A DNA stretch of 42,263 nt from a virus. Of this stretch, positions 2,812-12,648 are shown one piece after another (position 1 is the first letter of the stretch; every line of letters starts with the position of its first letter). A program made the position numbers and the translations under genes. The notes below the pieces were generated by a model. The model saw nothing but the letters and a program-made list of their open reading frames with translations. It was not told where the DNA came from and did not search any database. The stretch lies in IMG/VR virus record IMGVR_UViG_3300045988_043105, positions 1-42,263 of that record; one strand, 5' to 3'.

Positions 2812-3027
2812 GTGGAATTGACGACATGGCTTCCGGTGGTTGCAAGCGCGGTCGGCAGCCTTGCAGGCGTGCTTGCATCTAACAAGCTGATGCAATATCG
2901 CATCCAGCAGCTCGAAAATAAGGTCAACAAGCACAACAGTATCGTCGAGAGGACGTACAAGCTTGAGGGCGAGGTCAAAGAGCTCCAACATGATGTGCGG
3001 GACTTAAAAGGAGATATCAAGGTATGA
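2812..3027 (+). CDS. Lysis-cassette membrane protein: N-terminal TM plus C-terminal coiled coil (holin accessory, XhlA-like class)
   Basis: GTG start after a GAGGTGA RBS. Hydrophobic N-terminus WLPVVASAVGSLAGVLA followed by heptad-like QQLENKVNKH..VKELQHDVRDLK. ATGA overlap with the holin. Confidence 0.55.
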   Translation: MELTTWLPVVASAVGSLAGVLASNKLMQYRIQQLENKVNKHNSIVERTYKLEGEVKELQHDVRDLKGDIKV

Positions 3028-3278
3028 GGATTAACTGGTTGGTACGCTTTCACAACAAGACGTTTCTGGCGTCGTTTCTGGCGTTGGTGATCGCGTTTGT
3101 CTATAATCTGCTGGCGCTGTTTGGCGTAACGCCATCTGTGCAGCAGGACGCGCTGTTGACTGCTGTCAACGCGATTCTGACGGTGCTGGGCATGATCGGC
3201 GTGATTGCCGACCCGACGACCAAGGGCATCAGCGATAGCGCGCAGGCGATGACCTACGACAAGCCCAAGGAGGGATAA
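3024..3278 (+). CDS. Holin (phi-LC3 / phage_holin_4_1-like)
   Basis: MRINWLVRFHNKTFLASFLALVIAFVYN...GVIADPTTKGISDSAQAMTY matches the characteristic holin family pattern. Two TM segments. Confidence 0.8.
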   Translation: MRINWLVRFHNKTFLASFLALVIAFVYNLLALFGVTPSVQQDALLTAVNAILTVLGMIGVIADPTTKGISDSAQAMTYDKPKEG

Positions 3279-3293
3279 AGGAGGCGGTTTCCC

Positions 3294-3521
3294 GTGCGTC
3301 TTGACTGCGACAGACGCACGAAAGAGGAAATCGCCCATGACTGCGGCTTTGACGAGCACGTCCGGCTAGGTCAGGTCTTCGACCTGCTCTGGCGTGGTTA
3401 CAGCATTGTGCAGATCAGTATGACGCTGGGCATGTCTCCAGCGACCGTCAGCCGCAGCATCAGAGAGATTAAAATACGGATGAGATCATCCTTTCGCAAA
3501 GATGACAATCCCCCGGCCTGA
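3294..3521 (+). CDS. Small HTH protein (sigma-70 region-4 / LuxR-like HTH)
   Basis: AAGGAGG RBS then GTG. GYSIVQISMTLGMSPATVSRSIREIK is a helix-turn-helix segment. Confidence 0.55.
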   Translation: MRLDCDRRTKEEIAHDCGFDEHVRLGQVFDLLWRGYSIVQISMTLGMSPATVSRSIREIKIRMRSSFRKDDNPPA

Positions 3522-3539
3522 TGGCCGGGGCTTTTTTTT
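3511..3539 (+). terminator. Rho-independent terminator closing the late/lysis operon
   Basis: CCCCGGCC-tgat-GGCCGGGG is a perfect 8-bp stem followed by C+T8. The stop codon sits in the loop. Confidence 0.85.
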
Positions 3540-3573
3540 AATGCAAAAATAAATATAAATAATTTAAAAACAC

Positions 3574-3602
3574 TTGACAAGTAAATTGAAATGATGTATT
3601 AT
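3574..3602 (+). promoter_or_regulatory. Near-consensus sigma-70 promoter P1 (TTGACA-17-TATTAT, TG upstream of the -10)
   Basis: TTGACA 3574-3579, 17-nt spacer, TATTAT 3597-3602. Shares AAAACACTTGACAA and AATGAT with the promoter at 5360. Confidence 0.75.
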
Positions 3603-3644
3603 ATGACCACAAAGAACAAAGGAATCAACCAATAGGAGGAAATC

Positions 3645-4094
3645 ATGAAAAAGTATTATTTGGTGGGCGAGGATATCGCCCGCCGCGAGATCACTGCTGA
3701 GCAGGTGCGCGAATATGCCGGAGACAGTGACTACCGCGTCATTGTCGAGGAGGACGGCAAGCAAGAGCCGCGCCGCGTTGCCTCCGCAGATCTCGCTCCG
3801 GACTGGGAGCCGTTTGTCTTCCCTCCGCGCGAAGGGTATCGGCTGACCGGTTACGAGATCGTGCGGTCGGATTACGAGGGACGGAGCTTCCCGGCGGACT
3901 CCATCCCCGCTGAAGCGGTTAAAACCCAATGGGCTAACCGTTGGGAGGTGCCGGGGGTAAACCCTGCCATCTACTACGCAGAGCCGGTATATGAGCCGAT
4001 TACCTGTGAGGGTGTCGGTGCTTGTGTGTCCTGTAAGCGGCTGACCTGTTCCCGCCGCGGCGCGGGCGTCCGTTGCCGCAATTACAAGGCATGA
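3645..4094 (+). CDS. Hypothetical protein (149 aa), first gene of accessory cassette 1; Cys/Arg-rich C-terminus
   Basis: AGGAGGA RBS 6 nt upstream of the ATG. No family recognised. Confidence 0.65.
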   Translation: MKKYYLVGEDIARREITAEQVREYAGDSDYRVIVEEDGKQEPRRVASADLAPDWEPFVFPPREGYRLTGYEIVRSDYEGRSFPADSIPAEAVKTQWANRWEVPGVNPAIYYAEPVYEPITCEGVGACVSCKRLTCSRRGAGVRCRNYKA

Positions 4095-4136
4095 TTTCGT
4101 CGCACGCAGACGTGGACGGCGAAGAAGGGAGAAAAA

Positions 4137-4487
4137 ATGGAAAAGGTAATTTGCGGCCTTTGCGCCGCCCGCCACCCGCTGCCGGTGACGGAGTACATTT
4201 ACCCCGAGACCGTCAACCCGTTGGATTTTGACGGTCTCAAGGCGGGCGCGGTTAAGTTCATCCTTGACCGCGTGGGCGTTGAGTCTGTGTACGCCCAGCC
4301 GATCAACGGCAACGATTACACGGACACGGAGTGCTTCCGCGGTCGTCGTGAGCTGGTGGTCTACGTCACCGGCTTGACGGCGGCTACAGCGGCAGTCATT
4401 GCCGCATGCGCAGAAAACGGCGTGCATCTGACGTTGATGCACTTTGACCGTGAGTGCGGCGATTATAAGCCGCAGGTAATCTTTTGA
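4137..4487 (+). CDS. Hypothetical protein (116 aa), cassette 1
   Basis: GAAGGGAG RBS. The segment VVYVTGLTAATAAVIAACAENGVHLTLMHFD suggests a small alpha/beta domain. Family not recognised. Confidence 0.65.
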   Translation: MEKVICGLCAARHPLPVTEYIYPETVNPLDFDGLKAGAVKFILDRVGVESVYAQPINGNDYTDTECFRGRRELVVYVTGLTAATAAVIAACAENGVHLTLMHFDRECGDYKPQVIF

Positions 4488-4501
4488 GAGGGGCGGAAAA
4501 A

Positions 4502-4996
4502 ATGAACATTAAACAGCTGCGCATCCTGCGCGGATTGAAGCAGAAGGAGCTGGCGGATAAGATGGGTATATCCGCGCAGCAACTCAATAACTATGAAGGG
4601 GGTAAGAGCAACCCCGGAAACAAAATTCTGCCCGCGCTGGCGGATGCGCTGGGCGTTTCGACCGCCTACCTTCGGGGGGGCGCGCAGCGTTTGGCCGTCT
4701 ATGACTGGCAGACCGGGCGCACTGAGGCGCTGCCCATCATGGCCGAGACGGTGATCGACGATTACGGCATCTTCTACCTCGTCGAGCACCCGGAGATTGG
4801 AATGATGGCGGTGATCCAGTCTGAGGGTATGCAGTTTACTCTTGCGGACTGGACGGCAGATCAACCGCTGACCGTCGATGCAATCAGCGGGAAGCAGTGG
4901 ATTGACAGTCGCGGCGAGGATGCAATCATGTACAAGGGGCTACCGCGCATTCTTGTTGGCGGCGAATTTGGGAGTAAGCAAAGCCGTATTATCTGA
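4502..4996 (+). CDS. XRE-family HTH regulator with a roughly 100-aa C-terminal domain of unknown function
   Basis: MNIKQLRILRGLKQKELADKMGISAQQLNNYEGGKSNP is a classic XRE HTH. ATG 4502 is preferred over the track's TTG 4484. Confidence 0.8.
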   Translation: MNIKQLRILRGLKQKELADKMGISAQQLNNYEGGKSNPGNKILPALADALGVSTAYLRGGAQRLAVYDWQTGRTEALPIMAETVIDDYGIFYLVEHPEIGMMAVIQSEGMQFTLADWTADQPLTVDAISGKQWIDSRGEDAIMYKGLPRILVGGEFGSKQSRII

Positions 4997-5012
4997 AAAG
5001 GGAGAGAAAGAT

Positions 5013-5294
5013 ATGATAATCAAAATTTACAAGTCTTACGGTGTGCTGGCGCATGAATACCATCCTGTATATACATGGAGATGCCCACAAAGTGATATCT
5101 ATGATGAGATCAGCGTCGATATCCCGAATATTGACGGCGAGAATTGCGATGGCGACCCGCTTGTCAATCTGGGCGACGGACTTGTTTATCCGCTTCGGAT
5201 GGTGCTTGGCAACTGGGGCGACGAGCCGGCGCTTATCTGGTATGATGGCGCAGCCCAACGCCACAAAATCCTGAAAGCCTATACCAAACTATAA
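5013..5294 (+). CDS. Hypothetical protein (93 aa), last gene of cassette 1
   Basis: GGGAGAGAAAG RBS before ATG 5013. The track ORF 4878 is an upstream extension overlapping the previous gene. Confidence 0.6.
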   Translation: MIIKIYKSYGVLAHEYHPVYTWRCPQSDIYDEISVDIPNIDGENCDGDPLVNLGDGLVYPLRMVLGNWGDEPALIWYDGAAQRHKILKAYTKL

Positions 5295-5299
5295 GACAT

Positions 5300-5328
5300 C
5301 CCCGGTCAGAAAGCCGGGGCTTCTTTTT
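5300..5328 (+). terminator. Rho-independent terminator of cassette 1
   Basis: CCCCGG-tcagaaag-CCGGGG followed by CTTCTTTTT. Confidence 0.75.
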
Positions 5329-5359
5329 AAAAAATAATCAAATTCGATTTATAAAACAC

Positions 5360-5388
5360 TTGACAAATAAATAAAAATGATTTACAAT
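5360..5388 (+). promoter_or_regulatory. Near-consensus sigma-70 promoter P2 (TTGACA-17-TACAAT), paralogous to P1
   Basis: TTGACA 5360-5365, 17-nt spacer, TACAAT 5383-5388. Same upstream AAAACACTTGACAA and same ATAGGAGGA leader/RBS as P1. Confidence 0.75.
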
Positions 5389-5429
5389 TATGCTTGTAAG
5401 GGAACAACCCGATAGGAGGAGAAGAAACC

Positions 5430-5978
5430 ATGAAAGAAAAGTACAAGCAGCAGCTTTCCACCGCCGCGCGCGAAATCTTCGAGCACTCCGGTGCTCAATT
5501 CTCTCTGATTGGCGACAAGATGGCCGTGTCGCCGCGTGACAAGGCCGTCAAGTTGGTCAAGGCGCATCCGGCCGAGATGCAGGAGATCAAGGCCGCGCTG
5601 ATGGACGAGGAAGCCGAAGAGCGCGAAACCGCCGAGCGTCGCCGGAATCTCCGCAATGCAATCCCCGGCTTGAAGGAGCTTGAAGCAGCGAAAGCCGAAC
5701 AAGCGACTTACCGCGAAGCGTTCGCGCGGGCTGTGGATAGCGGCAACGGCATCTATCCCGCCAAGCCCGGGAGCGATCCGGCGGAGCTGAGCGCACAATA
5801 CCCGATGGCGGCCGCGATGCTCCACGCGGAAAGCTACTCCTGCGCCGCCAATTACCGCAAGGCCAGCGCAGGAAGAAAAGCCGTCGAGCGCATCCTTGAC
5901 GGTGAGGATTGGAAAAAGGCCGTCAGCGACATGGAGAATGAGTGGCGCGAGGCGACAAGCGAGCATATGTGGGACTGA
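5430..5978 (+). CDS. Hypothetical protein (182 aa), single-gene cassette 2
   Basis: AGGAGGAG RBS. Charged, helical-looking sequence. No family recognised. Confidence 0.65.
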   Translation: MKEKYKQQLSTAAREIFEHSGAQFSLIGDKMAVSPRDKAVKLVKAHPAEMQEIKAALMDEEAEERETAERRRNLRNAIPGLKELEAAKAEQATYREAFARAVDSGNGIYPAKPGSDPAELSAQYPMAAAMLHAESYSCAANYRKASAGRKAVERILDGEDWKKAVSDMENEWREATSEHMWD

Positions 5979-6000
5979 TAAAAACCTGATACATTTCTGA

Positions 6001-6031
6001 CGCGCATCGGATAGGTGCGCGCCCTTTTTTT
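6001..6031 (+). terminator. Rho-independent terminator of cassette 2
   Basis: CGCGCA-tcggatagg-TGCGCG followed by CCC+T7. Confidence 0.7.
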
Positions 6032-6065
6032 ATGCAAAAATAGGAGCAGAAGCAGGTGAGAGAGC

Positions 6066-6437
6066 GTGTTTGTTCCATTTAACCCAAATCCTTTTCGTTC
6101 TCGTGTTGGCGACTGCGCGATTAGAGCGGTAAGCAAAGCGACCGACCAGACGTGGGAAAGCGTATTCGTCGCGCTTTGCCTTGATGGTTTCTGCGTTGGA
6201 GACATGCCGAACGCAAATCATGTCTGGGGCGCATATCTTCGGCGCAAAGGATTCAAGCGTCACAGCATCCCGGAGACGTGCCCGGACTGCTATACGGTTT
6301 CTGACTTCTGCCGAGACTTTCCGCGTGGCGTTTACGTTTTGGCGACAAATGGACACGTTCTCGCGGTCGTGAATGGTGATTGGTATGACACATGGGACAG
6401 CGGCGGAGAAACGCCCCTTTACTATTGGGAGGGATAA
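6066..6437 (+). CDS. Hypothetical protein with a papain-fold-like Cys...His...Asp pattern (putative cysteine peptidase-like)
   Basis: GTG start. VGDCAIRA, GHVLAVV and DTWDS are spaced as in small Cys-peptidase folds. The family name is not certain. Confidence 0.45.
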   Translation: MFVPFNPNPFRSRVGDCAIRAVSKATDQTWESVFVALCLDGFCVGDMPNANHVWGAYLRRKGFKRHSIPETCPDCYTVSDFCRDFPRGVYVLATNGHVLAVVNGDWYDTWDSGGETPLYYWEG

Positions 6438-6440
6438 TTT

Positions 6441-6887
6441 ATGGCTTATCCGATGCAAGGCTGGCAGCAGCCATACGGCGGATATTACCCGCCTATGCAA
6501 GATCAACTCGCGCAGCTCAGATCGCAGCCGTACATGCCGCAGCAGCCAGCGCAGCAAGCGCCAGCTCAAAATGGCGGCGGAATCATCTGGGTGCAGGGCG
6601 AAGCAGCGGCGAAAAGCTATCCGGTCAGCCCCGGAAGCGGCGTTCTGCTGATGGATAGTGAATCCTTGACGTTTTATCTCAAATCTGCGGACGCAAGTGG
6701 TATGCCGTCGATGCGAATCTTTGACTACACCGAGAGGACAGCACCGAGGCAAGCCGAGCCTTCCGTGCAATCATCCGAGTATGTGACCCGCGAAGACTTC
6801 AACGTGCTTGTGGCGCGGGTCGATGCGCTGACAAAAAAGCCGAACAGAAAAAAGGAGGATGCAGTCGATGAGCAACCCGCTGTTTAA
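6441..6887 (+). CDS. Hypothetical protein with a Pro/Gln/Tyr-rich N-terminus and a small beta-rich core
   Basis: MAYPMQGWQQPYGGYYPPMQDQLAQLRSQPYMPQQPAQQAPAQ is a low-complexity head, followed by IIWVQGEAAAKSYPV..MRIFDY. Confidence 0.6.
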   Translation: MAYPMQGWQQPYGGYYPPMQDQLAQLRSQPYMPQQPAQQAPAQNGGGIIWVQGEAAAKSYPVSPGSGVLLMDSESLTFYLKSADASGMPSMRIFDYTERTAPRQAEPSVQSSEYVTREDFNVLVARVDALTKKPNRKKEDAVDEQPAV

Positions 6888-7098
6888 TGCGATGCAGGGA
6901 ATGTCTGGGCATCTGCCTGGACAGATGGGACAGTTTCAGCAGATGGCGCAGGAGTTCAAGCGGTTCAAGGCCGGATTTAACGGTGATCCGCAGCAAGAGG
7001 TTCAGCGCCTACTCAACAGCGGCAAGATGACGCAGCAGCAGTTTAATCAGCTCTACGGCATCGCCCGCCAATTCCAAAGCCTCTTTGAAGGTCTATAA
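6868..7098 (+). CDS. Small Gln/Met-rich protein (76 aa)
   Basis: AAGGAGG lies 9 nt before ATG 6868 (the track start 6859 is in frame). Overlaps the previous gene by 20 nt. Confidence 0.55.
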   Translation: MSNPLFNAMQGMSGHLPGQMGQFQQMAQEFKRFKAGFNGDPQQEVQRLLNSGKMTQQQFNQLYGIARQFQSLFEGL

Positions 7099-7148
7099 CG
7101 GCTAAATCCGTGCGCACGGTTAGCATAAAAAAGAAAGGACGTGTGAAA

Positions 7149-7964
7149 ATGTCTTTGACAACCTCTGAAATGACCCCTGCCGATATCGCGGCGGTAACGG
7201 GCGGAAATCGCAACAACGGCGGCATGTTTGGAGACGGGAACGGCGCGTGGTGGATCATCGTTCTGTTCCTCTTCATGTTCTGCGGCTGGGGCGGCATGGG
7301 CTGGGGCGGCGGCTTCGGCAACAGCGGCGCAAATTCTCCGGGCTTCCAAGGCTACGCGACCCGCGCCGACATCAACGAAGGCTTTGCCATCAATGGCATT
7401 GACAACGGCATCCGCGCCATCCAGAACGGTCTTTGTGACAGCACCTACGCCATCACCAACGCCGTCAACGGCGGTTTCAGCGCGGCGGAGCTTTCCCGCG
7501 CCAACCAGCAGGCGGCGCTCATGCAGCAGCTCTTCACGATGCAGATGCAGCAGGCGAACTGCTGCTGCGAGACGCGCGAAGCGATTCAGGGTGTGAATTA
7601 CAATCTCGCTACTCAGGCTTGTGACACGCGCAACCAGATGCAGCAGGGCTTCTGCGCCATCCAGAACACGCTCAACAGCAACACCCGCGACGTGATCGAC
7701 AACCAGAACGCCAACAGCCGTGCGATTCTCGACTTCCTCACGCAGGACAAGATCGCAACGTTGCAGGCGGAAAACACCGATCTTCGCCGCGCCGCGTCGC
7801 AGGAGCGTCAGTCGGCGCTGCTGACCACGGAGATGGGGGCGCAGACTGCGCAGATCATCAACGCGCTGCGTCAGCCTGTAGCCATCCCTGCGTATCAGGT
7901 GCCGAACCCCTACACGGGCGGTTACGGTTATGGCTGCGCTGCTAACGCCGGCTGTAGCTGCTAA
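7149..7964 (+). CDS. Membrane protein: Gly/Trp-rich TM segment, Asn/Gln-rich body, multiple Cys (CCC; C-terminal GCAANAGCSC)
   Basis: ATG 7149 after a GAAAGGA RBS. The WWIIVLFLFMFCGWGGMGWGGGFGN segment resembles YjcZ-type Gly-rich membrane peptides. Confidence 0.6.
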   Translation: MSLTTSEMTPADIAAVTGGNRNNGGMFGDGNGAWWIIVLFLFMFCGWGGMGWGGGFGNSGANSPGFQGYATRADINEGFAINGIDNGIRAIQNGLCDSTYAITNAVNGGFSAAELSRANQQAALMQQLFTMQMQQANCCCETREAIQGVNYNLATQACDTRNQMQQGFCAIQNTLNSNTRDVIDNQNANSRAILDFLTQDKIATLQAENTDLRRAASQERQSALLTTEMGAQTAQIINALRQPVAIPAYQVPNPYTGGYGYGCAANAGCSC

Positions 7965-8030
7965 AATCGCATAAGAGATGCAACTGTTCGGCGCGACCGA
8001 GCTGTTCAGCCCTGAGCTGATTCTGCAACG

Positions 8031-8062
8031 ACGGCGGGGCGAATGTGTCCCGCCGTTTCTTA
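8031..8062 (+). terminator. Rho-independent terminator (weak U-tract)
   Basis: ACGGCGGG-10 nt-CCCGCCGT is a perfect 8-bp stem followed by TTCTTAT. Confidence 0.55.
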
Positions 8063-8078
8063 TGAAAGGAGATAATTT

Positions 8079-8501
8079 ATGGCTGAGTATACCAACGCCA
8101 GCACAGCACTTGTTGCGGCCGGCCAGAATCTACCGCTGACCGAAACGCCGATTTGCGGCTCTCCGTGCATCGTCCATCGAGAGGGCGCGGGAATCGTAAC
8201 ACTTCGCGGCCTGACGAACCAGTGCCGAGCGCGGTACTTTGTGGACTTCGCCGGGAACATTGCCATTCCGACCGGAGGAACGGTTGGGGCGATCTCCGTT
8301 GCGCTGGCGATAAACGGCGAGCCGCTGAATAGCGCCGTCGCTATCGTCACCCCTGCGGCGGTCGAGAACTATTTCAACGTTTCCGTATCCGCATTTGTCG
8401 ATGTGCCGCGTGGATGCTGCGTAACCGTCGCGCTGAAAAACATCAGTGCGCAAGCGATTGACGTTGCCAACGCAAACCTGATCGTCACGCGGCAGGCATG
8501 A
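8079..8501 (+). CDS. Small all-beta protein resembling the BclA C-terminal / C1q-TNF-like jelly-roll domain
   Basis: AAGGAGA RBS. The alternating beta pattern (IVHREGAGIVTL, RYFVDFAGNIAI, ISVALAINGEPL, VTVALKN, ANLIVTRQA) looks like exosporium BclA-C-type domains. Confidence 0.4.
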   Translation: MAEYTNASTALVAAGQNLPLTETPICGSPCIVHREGAGIVTLRGLTNQCRARYFVDFAGNIAIPTGGTVGAISVALAINGEPLNSAVAIVTPAAVENYFNVSVSAFVDVPRGCCVTVALKNISAQAIDVANANLIVTRQA

Positions 8502-8515
8502 GAAAGGAGAAAAAT

Positions 8516-8884
8516 ATGGGTATGAAAGCAATGCGCGACTTGCGCGATATGCTTTGCGATGAGCTGGACAAAATCGCCGCCAAGCGCGACATGAACCCCG
8601 GCGACCTTGAAACCGTTCACAAGCTGACCGACACCATCAAGAATATTGACAAAATCGAAATCCTTGAGGACGAAGGCTACAGCAACAGCGCGGAGTGGCG
8701 TGCTGACGTGCGCGGAAGCTATGGACGCAACGACCGACGCGGCGAACATTACGTGCGCGGGCATTACAGCCGCGACGACGGGCGTGAAAGCATGATGCGC
8801 AAAATGGAAGAGATTATGCGAGATGCGACCGGCGAACAGCGCGAAATCATCCGCCGCGCAATGGACGAGCTGCGCAACGCCTGA
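8516..8884 (+). CDS. Hypothetical charged protein (122 aa), Arg/Asp/Gly/Tyr-rich centre
   Basis: AAAGGAGA RBS before ATG 8516 (the track start 8498 is in frame). Confidence 0.6.
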   Translation: MGMKAMRDLRDMLCDELDKIAAKRDMNPGDLETVHKLTDTIKNIDKIEILEDEGYSNSAEWRADVRGSYGRNDRRGEHYVRGHYSRDDGRESMMRKMEEIMRDATGEQREIIRRAMDELRNA

Positions 8885-8900
8885 CAGGCGGTGAGCAGCA

Positions 8901-9239
8901 TTGATCGACCTGAAAGAGATCGACGAAACCATCACCAAGATCAAGCGCGAAGGGACGAGCGTAAAAGACGCTGAACGTCTGGCGGTGCTGTACGGTCTTC
9001 GGGCGCACATGGCGAGTGAATCTGTGCAGGATGTGAAGGAAGCGCCCGCTTCGGCGTACTCGATGGCGGCAGAGCCGGAAAGCGAGTTCCGCGCTGCGTG
9101 TGCAGGCTTGTCATCTGCCGAGCTTGTCGATGCGCTGGAAGACACGATTCAGGGCTTGCAGATCGTCGCGCCGAAGGCATACGCGGCGGCAATCCGAAAA
9201 CTGAAAACGCGCCCAGATGAGCAAAGAGGTCGGGGATAA
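8901..9239 (+). CDS. Hypothetical protein (112 aa), last gene before attP
   Basis: TTG start. Its stop codon lies in the loop of the terminator at 9227-9256. Confidence 0.5.
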   Translation: MIDLKEIDETITKIKREGTSVKDAERLAVLYGLRAHMASESVQDVKEAPASAYSMAAEPESEFRAACAGLSSAELVDALEDTIQGLQIVAPKAYAAAIRKLKTRPDEQRGRG

Positions 9240-9512: not shown

Positions 9513-10628
9513 CTATTTTTTCGCCGAAACAGACCCGTACAAGGCTGCTGTTCCAGCCGCCATTTTGGCGTTGACCTCTTCCTGCCGTTCGCGGAAAAGC
9601 TCGACGTACACCTGATGGGAGAAGGCGGACGTTGAATGACCCATGACGCGGGCAAGCTCTTCCTCGGACGCACCGGAGTAGGCGACGGATGTTGCGAAAA
9701 AGTGCCTCAAATCGTAAAAGCGCATCTTTTCTGGAAGCTCCAGTGCCGCTCTGCATTTTTTCCACCTGTAGTCAACGAGCATCGGCTTTAACGTCAGTAT
9801 TTGGTCACAGTCAGCACCTCGCGGCTTGCAATCGTACAGATTTTGGAAGAAAGACCAATCGAGACGAAGCACCCGCTCTCCTGCATCTGTTTTTGTGACG
9901 TTTTTTCCGACATATGCGCTGGATTCATCGCGCACCGTGGCTTTGTCAATGCTCAAAAGCCCCATCTTGTAGACCCTTCCATCTCTGCTGATTGCGGAGA
10001 CGGGTTCAGCGGACAGATCACCCCACGTCAAAGCGTATGCCTCAGATGGGCGTAAACCTGCGCTCACGATGAAGCAGCAATAAAGGTAGAAATCCACTTC
10101 CCAATGCTCTTTGGCGTAGGTCAGCACGTCTCGCGCCCAGCCCTCAGAAAAAAGCTGTTTCTTCGATTTTCGGCGTTTGGCTATGACGACGCCAGACAGA
10201 TTCAGATCGGGGGCGTATTTTCCCAAAACTGAGCGCAAGAAGTAAAATTCATTCCGAACCGTTTTCACGGAATGATCTTTAGCTCTTGTGTCAATCGCCT
10301 TTTGGATATCTCGCTCTGTGATTTGATCTAAGCGCAAAGAGACAAGTGCTGGAAAGCCATTTGCCCGTATCGAGACATACGCCGGAATCGTAGACGGCGA
10401 ATAGCCCTGCACCCTACAAGTATCTATAAACTCGTCCATCGCCTGACCGAGCGTCAGCGTTTGCTTCTTCTTCCTCTTGCGATCGGCAGCGGCGACGGCG
10501 GCGAGACGTTCAGATTCGCGGGCAGTCGATGCGGTAAAGGATTCGACGATGGGCTTTCCCGCCGCATCACTGCCGAGGTAAACCTGTGTTCGCCAGTTAC
10601 CGGAAGGCAGCTTTTTGGCTTTTGCCAT
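9513..10628 (-). CDS. int: Tyrosine recombinase / phage integrase
   Basis: The N-terminus MAKAKKLPSGNWRTQVYLG is an arm-binding type. The C-terminal YDLRHFFAT...MGHSTSAFSHQVYVE carries the R..H.R..Y catalytic pattern. AAGGGGGA RBS. Confidence 0.9.
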   Translation of the reverse strand: MAKAKKLPSGNWRTQVYLGSDAAGKPIVESFTASTARESERLAAVAAADRKRKKKQTLTLGQAMDEFIDTCRVQGYSPSTIPAYVSIRANGFPALVSLRLDQITERDIQKAIDTRAKDHSVKTVRNEFYFLRSVLGKYAPDLNLSGVVIAKRRKSKKQLFSEGWARDVLTYAKEHWEVDFYLYCCFIVSAGLRPSEAYALTWGDLSAEPVSAISRDGRVYKMGLLSIDKATVRDESSAYVGKNVTKTDAGERVLRLDWSFFQNLYDCKPRGADCDQILTLKPMLVDYRWKKCRAALELPEKMRFYDLRHFFATSVAYSGASEEELARVMGHSTSAFSHQVYVELFRERQEEVNAKMAAGTAALYGSVSAKK

Positions 10629-12054: not shown

Positions 12055-12234
12055 ATGCAAACAACAAAAGCTGAGGCAAAAAAGGTAAAAATGATTTTGA
12101 ATGATCGGGAATATCGTTCGTTGTTGCTTTTTAGGACGCTGACCCCTGGCCAGCAAAAGTATTTTCTGACTTTGGAAAGCCGTATATCAAAAGTTCATCC
12201 GAAAGCCGACGACCTTCATCTGATGAAGCCCTAA
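12055..12234 (+). CDS. Possible small protein (59 aa) converging on and overlapping the repressor 3' end
   Basis: GAGGTGA RBS 6 nt before ATG 12055. It overlaps the minus-strand repressor gene by about 100 nt, so only one of the two tails may be real. Confidence 0.3.
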   Translation: MQTTKAEAKKVKMILNDREYRSLLLFRTLTPGQQKYFLTLESRISKVHPKADDLHLMKP

Positions 12235-12496
12235 AATTCATTAAGTGTCGGTATTCTTCATCCGAAAGCTCGCATGTATGACATGTGGGCTTTTTTGTGT
12301 CTTTTGGGTTATCGGTCAAAAGATAATCGATGGTAACGCCGAAACAATCTGCGATTTTTCGCAGCATTGCAATATCCGGTTCAGCTTTGCCATTCTCATA
12401 CAGGCTTATCGTCGATTCAGAAACGCCCATCAGGTTTCCGAGCTGCTTCATGGTCATTCCAGCAGCCTTGCGCAATGCACGAATATTATTAGTCAT
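12131..12496 (-). CDS. CI-like lysogeny repressor (XRE HTH)
   Basis: MTNNIRALRKAAGMTMKQLGNLMGVSESTISLYENGKAEP is an XRE HTH. AAGGAG RBS. Divergent from a Cro-like gene across an operator-rich region. Confidence 0.8.
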   Translation of the reverse strand: MTNNIRALRKAAGMTMKQLGNLMGVSESTISLYENGKAEPDIAMLRKIADCFGVTIDYLLTDNPKDTKKPTCHTCELSDEEYRHLMNFRASSDEGRRLSDELLIYGFPKSENTFAGQGSAS

Positions 12497-12648
12497 ATGC
12501 TGAAATCTCCTTTTTTTATTATTATAAACTTGATTTTTCCTCAAGTAAATAGGCTTGAAAAAAACTCAAGAAAATTACTAAAAACGCTTGACTGTTGCTC
12601 AAGGATGATGTATACTTGAGTAAAGTTAAAGAAAAAGGAGGTTACAGC
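12497..12648. promoter_or_regulatory. Genetic switch: divergent promoters plus repeated CTTGA/CTCAAG operator half-sites
   Basis: The + promoter is TTGACT 12588-12593, 17 nt, TATACT 12611-12616. The - promoter has a TATAAT -10 (plus-strand 12521-12526) and a TTTACT -35 (12544-12549). Inverted repeats: ACTTGA-n7-TCAAGT (12528-12546), CTTGA-n6-CTCAAG (12554-12570 and 12587-12603), CTCAAG-n11-CTTGAG (12598-12620). Confidence 0.75.

Follow-up and report, generated by a model that had tools for sequence, protein, structure and literature searches.

We analyzed a 42,263-nucleotide (nt) stretch of viral DNA (IMG/VR record IMGVR_UViG_3300045988_043105, positions 1 to 42,263; hereafter the window), which holds the complete genome of a temperate siphophage from the human gut. 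Between its lysis genes and its integrase lies a real, independently transcribed and hypervariable accessory locus, in which a terminator-promoter unit heads a cassette of small genes and a helix-turn-helix (HTH) regulator gene of the XRE type stays in place while the genes around it are exchanged. We rank first, at a probability of about 0.45, the reading that this is a counter-defense locus laid out like the operons that pair anti-CRISPR genes (acr) with genes for anti-CRISPR-associated regulators (aca). It is placed first because variable small cargo between a constant strong promoter and an HTH gene is the acr-aca layout, and because the promoter is reused on a neighboring operon.

A constant frame around exchangeable genes

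Cassette 1 lies on the plus strand behind terminator T1 (3511-3539; stem 3511-3530 with 8 G-C pairs, a 4-nt loop and T8), which closes the late/lysis operon and folds at -19.5 kcal/mol (z = -3.25). The promoter unit P1 (3540-3644) comprises an A/T-rich upstream stretch, a -35 hexamer (TTGACA, 3574-3579), a 17-nt spacer, a -10 hexamer (TATTAT, 3597-3602), a leader that is unstructured by folding and a ribosome-binding site (RBS; TAGGAGG, 3633-3639). P1 matches 11 of 12 consensus positions, and only two such sites occur in the first 9 kb of the window. Four genes follow on the same strand, A (3645-4094, 149 amino acids [aa]), B (4137-4487, 116 aa), C (4502-4996, 164 aa from the ATG) and D (5013-5294, 93 aa), separated by gaps of 42, 14 and 16 nt. 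Terminator T2 (5300-5328, plus strand; stem 5300-5319 with seven pairs and a T-run; -13.4 kcal/mol, z = -2.59) closes the unit. All four are real genes, because the ratio of nonsynonymous to synonymous changes against two relatives (pN/pS) is 0.16-0.28 for A, B, C and D (0.17 for A), which indicates purifying selection. An earlier note on this DNA had described the two terminators, a near-consensus promoter and four tightly packed genes between them, and each of these elements is present. Terminators on both sides and a promoter of its own also bear out the note's view that the unit is independently transcribed. We observed a further promoter-like site (4902-4929; TTGACA-16-AATCAT with an upstream TG, 10 of 12 positions) within the 3' end of C; it lies 84 nt ahead of D and could give D a separate transcript.

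We then compared gene content across relatives by a tblastn matrix. The relatives comprise 25 IMG/VR contigs with C, recovered in scans using A, B, the C-terminal domain of C and D, and 28 human-gut metagenome contigs from a scan with a C alignment; some of the latter duplicate IMG/VR contigs, and together they represent about 50 loci. Read from 5' to 3', these loci share a frame made of the lysis genes, a 75-aa HTH gene, the terminator with P1, a variable slot and C; then D, a 245-aa HNH-like gene or nothing; a terminator with a second promoter, P2; then a gene E, a 118-aa gene or nothing; and finally genes F to L and the integrase. The 75-aa HTH gene, P1 and C are constant in both sets, C being present in 25/25 IMG/VR and 28/28 metagenome relatives at 75-96% identity. 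By contrast with this constant frame, the slot between P1 and C spans 400-1700 bp and holds one to four genes from at least 12 unrelated small families. With alternative cargo genes given a prefix c, the contents seen were A B; c93 A B; A B c120 c75; c98; c98 c120; c98 c149b; c98 c122 B; c122 B; c71 c75; c71 c149b c212; c98 c76; and c93 c120. The pair A and B makes up cargo in about 9 of the roughly 50 loci. D follows C in 16 of the 25 IMG/VR relatives, its place being taken in the others by the 245-aa HNH-like gene or left empty.

The promoter unit behaves as a module. About 115 bp long, it is kept at the head of both cassettes in relatives regardless of the gene behind it, and the P1 unit is confined to C-carrying genomes: it is not found upstream of A in L002, L007 or L008 (L numbers denote individual loci). 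Between relatives, A to E are 80-91% identical and the flanks F to L 94-99%. Beyond this phage group, A stands alone in L002, and A, B and E form a contiguous operon, with neither C nor D, in a different phage (L007). B is found without A in L014, and D without C in other phages.

Cargo genes are therefore inherited one by one, and what stays constant is the promoter module together with C. This corrects the earlier description of a self-contained four-gene cassette: A and B are optional cargo, D is replaceable, and sub-combinations exist in L002, L008, L014 and L007. Since each cargo gene occurs independently and the slot content is shuffled around constant P1 and C, A to D are not one system. 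We accordingly give almost no credence to an obligate four-component system, for which one could cite the tight packing of the four genes behind a single promoter and ahead of a single terminator in the window, L001 and L005. Such a system is hard to square with A standing alone, B without A and the A-B-E operon without C and D, and within the group C is found with entirely different cargo, without D, or separated from B by extra genes. Following homologs by association, as the earlier note had proposed, yielded instead a constant P1 and XRE gene with shuffled genes between them, which lends comparative support to its idea of an Aca-like arrangement.

Some loci retain traces of exchange. In the pair L002 (4070-4385) and L003 (3409-3636), L002 carries the cysteine-rich cargo gene of 75 aa and, behind it, a piece of the C HTH (ALGVSTDYL). 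This piece is a relic of recombination with a C-type locus and places exchange junctions within genes. The genes that replace D in some relatives (L004 5931-6698, L014 6841-7593, L046 3553-4290) encode cysteine-rich proteins of 245-255 aa with weak matches to HNH-endonuclease PHROGs; they may be mobile nucleases tied to the gene shuffling.

Gene C, the paired promoters and their surroundings

C carries an XRE-type HTH_3 domain at residues 3-57 (E = 4e-16), followed by an acidic C-terminal region of about 100 aa that matched nothing in Pfam, in PDB sequences or by tblastn against phages. In the PDB sequence search the closest solved HTH was that of 434 repressor (E = 7e-7), and the matches at E<=1e-3 were 434 repressor, Xre-family regulators, DdrOC and PezA, with no Aca entry among them. 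The HTH of C is also 39% identical to that of the phage's own XRE repressor (12131-12544, minus strand). In this domain C thus resembles the 434- and CI-type repressors; it differs from them in a C-terminal domain unrelated to Peptidase_S24 or any other known domain, and in lying far from the immunity region.

By analogy with acr-aca operons, C is a candidate Aca-like autoregulator. Two candidate operators surround the -35 of P1 (3561-3587): AATTTA-N15-TAAATT, which spans that whole interval, and the palindrome ACTTGACAAGT (3572-3582). At P2, the candidate is ATTTAT-N14-ATAAAT (5347-5372). All are short and either A/T-rich or dictated by the -35, and in relatives they are moderately conserved with no compensating changes. 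The earlier note had placed the -35 inside a palindrome; the overlap at 3572-3582 is there, but three of the five pairs are TTGACAA itself, and compensating changes are missing in relatives. A 434-type operator (ACAA-N6-TTGT) was ruled out at P1, where a single ACAAG half-site is present. Because the operator candidates are weak and not maintained in relatives, we infer autoregulation by C from the architecture only.

The intergenic unit after D (5300-5429) is a paralog of the first terminator-promoter unit. Both have the same terminator type, the -35 context AACACTTGACAA, ATGAT-TA 5' of the -10 and the RBS ATAGGAGG. The second unit opens cassette 2 (5329-6030, plus strand), which follows the same plan: P2 (TTGACA-17-TACAAT, 5360-5388) drives a sole gene, E (5430-5978, 182 aa), ended by a third terminator (6001-6021 and a T-run). 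In relatives E is swapped for the 118-aa gene or missing, and in L007 it stands directly after B. P1 and P2 further have AAAACNCTTGAC and ATGATGTAT in common with an early promoter of the phage (12588-12616), with no other matches in the 42-kb window, and CAAGTAAAT of P1 recurs in the immunity region (12529-12620) and nowhere else in the window. The immunity region itself carries two 17-bp CTTGA-N7-TCAAG repeats and CTCAAG-N11-CTTGAG around divergent promoters; the 17-bp repeats are not found at P1 or P2. No RNA element was detected by Rfam over 3000-6500 or by folding both 5' untranslated regions (UTRs), and a DNA similarity search with 3294-6100 against INPHARED phages returned no match.

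The locus is placed between the endolysin gene (2056-2796, NlpC/P60 and SH3 domains) and the integrase gene (9513-10628, minus strand), in keeping with the earlier placement between the lysis genes and the attachment (att) region. Two putative holin open reading frames (ORFs) follow the endolysin (2812-3027 and 3024-3278), called from their position and hydrophobic sequence without a family match. The final gene of the late operon, directly 5' of P1, is the 75-aa HTH gene (3294-3521), kept in all relatives at 80-95%; its product has weak similarity to sigma-70 region-4, GerE/LuxR and HTH_38 and could be a further regulator of P1 and P2. Seven genes, F to L (6066-9239, plus strand), fill the interval between the cassettes and the integrase. 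They are 91-100% conserved in nearly all relatives and their functions are unknown (phrog_3754, phrog_21718, phrog_16490); the product of one, gene I (284 aa), is glycine- and cysteine-rich with a hydrophobic N-terminal stretch. The RecE/RecT, terminase and portal genes of the phage are all on the plus strand.

Cargo proteins and their homologs

The cargo proteins are soluble and 71-212 aa long, and A to E are mildly acidic. No functional family was found for A, B, D or E in Pfam, PHROGs, NCBIfam or PADLOC, in agreement with the earlier note, which had recognized no family for the three non-HTH proteins of cassette 1. Ten alternative cargo proteins scanned against Pfam and PHROGs gave the same result, the exceptions being the weak HNH-like PHROG match of the 245-aa protein and a sub-threshold DUF5710 match of a 212-aa protein. 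PDB sequences held no relative of any cargo protein searched, A, B and D among them. PADLOC, one of the checks that the earlier note had called for, reported no defense system on the cassette, its sole hits being those of the generic HTH of C to models for RmrA, capH and control proteins; a PADLOC-type defense system was accordingly rejected. The commonest alternative cargo, c98 (98 aa, KRAWIMVKSFGLSLSVALKGAWALAKA; for example L053 3917-4213), has an N-terminal helical motif, K-x-AW...ALK-x-AW, which by eye is common to a 160-aa ORF of a Staphylococcus prophage (L025 5146-5628), placed there two genes upstream of a B homolog.

B belongs to a large family. A word-indexed search recovered 59 relatives down to 30% identity, and an exhaustive profile search reached 1619 clusters (at 50% identity) with E<=1e-3, 1120 of them with E<=1e-10. 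Members are mostly stand-alone proteins of 90-145 aa and unannotated, and Pfam detected no informative fusion in ten that have N- or C-terminal extensions. The family alignment displays the motifs GRHxMP, YVTGLT and LTLMHFDRxxGxYxPQ; for YVTGLT, nothing was found in the literature. R12, H13, Y76-V77-T78-G79-L80, H102 and Q113 are invariant, and D30, T81, L100, R105 and Y110 nearly so. The AlphaFold2 model of B (predicted local distance difference test [pLDDT] 93.9) has seven strands and two helices, around a conserved beta-alpha-beta-alpha-beta-beta core of four strands and two helices that is kept in shorter members. In this model, R12/H13, T78-T81 and H102/R105 sit at strand C-termini and a helix N-terminus, and Y110 and Q113 lie on the last strand. 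Strand C-termini are the usual phosphate or ligand site of Rossmann-like folds, and the conserved polar residues of B may accordingly mark such a site.

Fold comparison offers a lead, not a result. Foldseek of the B model against the PDB found nothing significant (best E 0.02), and 12 of the 50 best matches, all of these with E >= 0.08, were CARF/SAVED sensors or ring nucleases (Csm6, Sis0455, Cam1, Csa3, Cap4, Sso2081 [Crn1] and Can2), with template modeling (TM) scores of 0.31-0.49. CARF, SAVED and Csx models from Pfam, NCBIfam and PADLOC gave no significant match among 32 B-family members, with isolated noise-level CARF4/SAVED values (E 0.01-0.1). As a stand-alone, phage-encoded alpha/beta protein in the range of about 90-130 aa, B resembles the ring nucleases Csx16, Csx20, Crn1 and viral AcrIII-1 (Hoikkala et al., PMC12409355), and in its model the conserved polar residues stand at strand C-termini, where CARF domains bind ligand. 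It differs from them in having no sequence match to CARF, SAVED or Csx families, in fold scores of E >= 0.02 and TM <= 0.49, in a core of four strands and two helices, and in that we saw no link to a CRISPR locus of type III. An identity with DUF1874/AcrIII-1 was rejected, as Pfam gave no match and none was recognized among the 50 best PDB fold matches.

A search of BFVD returned two clear B-family members. One is A0A8S5UFB0 from Myoviridae sp. ctcyQ27, annotated as an HTH-domain protein; within its 386 aa lies a domain like B (28% identity, TM 0.77). A B fold joined to an HTH in this way would be consistent with ligand sensing. In a prophage, a B homolog occupies the third position of the early operon, following CI (S24) and Cro; another lies shortly after an amidase-type endolysin in a Staphylococcus prophage, and in several phages, among them a jumbo Fusobacterium phage, others are embedded in stretches of small genes of unknown function. 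A genome profile search with a narrow B alignment found four loci, in metagenome-assembled genomes of Acutalibacteraceae and Lachnospiraceae and in a Staphylococcus genome.

The C terminus of protein A carries a basic motif of four cysteines (C-x2-C-x4-C-x8-C), which a 52%-identical homolog keeps and which, judging from the sequences, is probably a zinc knuckle. Apart from close relatives and this homolog, found in L008 and L009, no A relative was found, and tblastn of A against phages and plasmids returned no match. In L008 (4902-8632) and L009, the homolog lies behind a TTGACG-17-TATAAT promoter on viral contigs of 55-57 kb, which may be phage-plasmids, directly 5' of a replication-initiator-like gene that is followed by an 88-aa gene and parA.

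This setting bears on another explanation, in which the cargo would be ordinary early, host-takeover or replication accessory genes and C a secondary regulator of timing or of the choice between lysis and lysogeny. The operon headed by the A homolog would suit it, as would a gene with a J-domain-like (DnaJ) sequence, read from translation, that adjoins A-B-E in L007. The -35 context and ATGATGTAT block that P1 and P2 have in common with the early promoter point the same way, as does the likeness between the HTH of C and that of the phage repressor. We nevertheless consider it rather improbable. Essential or housekeeping genes are unlikely to be swapped among phages that are 94-99% identical in their flanks, and no protein of the locus matches a replication, recombination or structural family, homology to housekeeping proteins having been named by the earlier note as what would overturn its proposal.

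D has an all-beta model (pLDDT 86.5) with no neighbor among PDB folds (best E 1.9). The Foldseek check suggested by the earlier note, run on models of B and D, yielded no significant PDB fold match. The Mu-like Clostridium phage Villandry has a D homolog in its early region, and another phage has one downstream of the lysis genes. A homolog of 53% identity was also observed in L064 (1-10276) together with DUF932, YodL, a PemK toxin, two Lar restriction-alleviation genes, a ProQ_C-like gene and an IS605 OrfB/TnpB gene, in what looks like an anti-defense or leading-region island.

The adjacency of C and D (16-nt gap, together in 16 of the 25 IMG/VR relatives) could suggest that the two form an addiction module, or a type II toxin-antitoxin pair of XRE antitoxin and small toxin, with A and B as passengers, an option that the earlier note had entertained. 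Sub-threshold matches of the C HTH to the antitoxins HipB, PezA, MqsA and spr1629 would agree with it, as would the PemK gene beside the D homolog of L064. Those matches, however, span the generic HTH only and fall far under curated cut-offs; D matches no toxin family and no solved fold, its homologs elsewhere have no neighboring C-like gene, and C stays when D is replaced by the HNH-like gene or lost. We therefore regard such a module as highly unlikely. For a counter-defense locus, the contexts of the B and D homologs are circumstantially favorable, in that they fit early-acting accessory or counter-defense genes.

Weighing counter-defense against lysogen benefit

The architecture of the locus is of a known kind; its proteins are new and uncharacterized. 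Like acr-aca operons, it lies in an accessory region of a temperate phage, where a strong promoter drives small, unrelated, fast-exchanged genes and a conserved, co-transcribed HTH gene. One promoter type also heads the neighboring operon here, and Aca proteins are reported to control adjacent operons often, including anti-defense ones (PMC13551039). The locus departs from acr-aca operons in that C is not the last gene, D following it, and in that no structured 5' UTR and no clear inverted-repeat operator are present.

Several further points weigh against a counter-defense locus of this type. No cargo gene is a known or homology-supported anti-CRISPR, and no similarity of the cargo to known anti-CRISPR, anti-restriction or other anti-defense proteins was found by sequence (Pfam, PHROGs, NCBIfam, PADLOC and PDB) or, for B and D, by PDB fold. 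At 164 aa, C is extended by a domain of some 100 aa, and no solved Aca protein or described Aca family matched it, the comparison having been made through PDB sequences; a convincing operator for it was not found at P1. The likeness of B to CARF proteins is below significance by fold and has no sequence match behind it. Finally, because hypervariable slots near lysis or integrase genes also carry prophage defense and lysogenic-conversion genes, the architecture alone leaves the direction of the conflict undecided. The earlier suggestion of an anti-defense or defense operon is partly borne out: the layout is acr-aca-like across relatives, and the cargo matches no known anti-defense, defense or toxin family.

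The cassettes might instead be morons for lysogenic conversion or prophage defense, expressed constitutively from the prophage to the benefit of the lysogen, through phage exclusion or host physiology, with C setting the level; we judge this unlikely, if still a serious contender. Juhala and colleagues are said to have described in 2000, from HK97 and HK022, the lambdoid moron as a gene with its own promoter and terminator between conserved genes. Here too, units with their own promoter and terminator stand between conserved genes, the 75-aa HTH gene upstream and F to L downstream. As with lambdoid morons, these terminator-promoter-gene(s)-terminator units lie 3' of the lysis genes and are present, absent or exchanged among close relatives, so that position between lysis genes and integrase, insulation and patchy occurrence all fit the classic definition. 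Moreover, P1 and P2, which have no CTTGA-N7-TCAAG repeats, may stay active in a lysogen. The locus differs from lambdoid morons in that a conserved promoter module of about 115 bp serves both of two units in tandem, and in that cassette 1 combines a fixed regulator with a multi-gene variable slot rather than a single inserted gene. Against benefit to the lysogen, PADLOC found no defense protein apart from the generic HTH matches of C, the small soluble cargo proteins have none of the enzymatic or membrane domains typical of defense or exclusion proteins, and B and D homologs also occur in early lytic regions of other phages.

If the locus does serve counter-defense, a portable unit made of a terminator, a strong sigma-70-type promoter and a strong RBS would launch a short operon independently of the late genes. 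The promoter-proximal genes (here A and B, and less so D, which comes after the regulator) would be interchangeable single-gene payloads, each probably acting by itself on a host target, either from the prophage or at an early stage of infection, and most likely against host defenses. C, made from the same transcript, would bind at the promoter and hold expression down, and may also act on P2, which drives E. B would act on a small ligand bearing phosphate, for example a nucleotide signal, by binding or cleaving it, and A would be a small zinc-knuckle protein. A bolder extension is that the proteins of the B family are CARF-like in a minimal form and bind cyclic-nucleotide immune signals or act on them as phosphodiesterases, which would make them a new class of sponge or ring nuclease acting against type III CRISPR, CBASS, Thoeris or Pycsar, and that the C-anchored slot catalogs a dozen new anti-defense families from human-gut Clostridia phages; we view this as a long shot.

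To our knowledge, hardly any counter-defense genes are known from phages that infect anaerobic gut Firmicutes. Anti-CRISPRs have been discovered by association through such a handle, a conserved regulator gene beside a shuffled slot, and here the anchor formed by C and the P1 unit points to at least 12 small protein families as candidates. Among them, B brings a family of more than 1600 unannotated clusters in public data, with a confident model and no significant PDB fold match. If even one of these families inhibits a defense system, the locus would become a search handle for many more; if the cargo instead protects the lysogen, it would be a compact example of prophage-borne accessory immunity. 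Altogether, the locus is a well-defined and experimentally tractable lead for anti-defense discovery in gut Firmicute phages.

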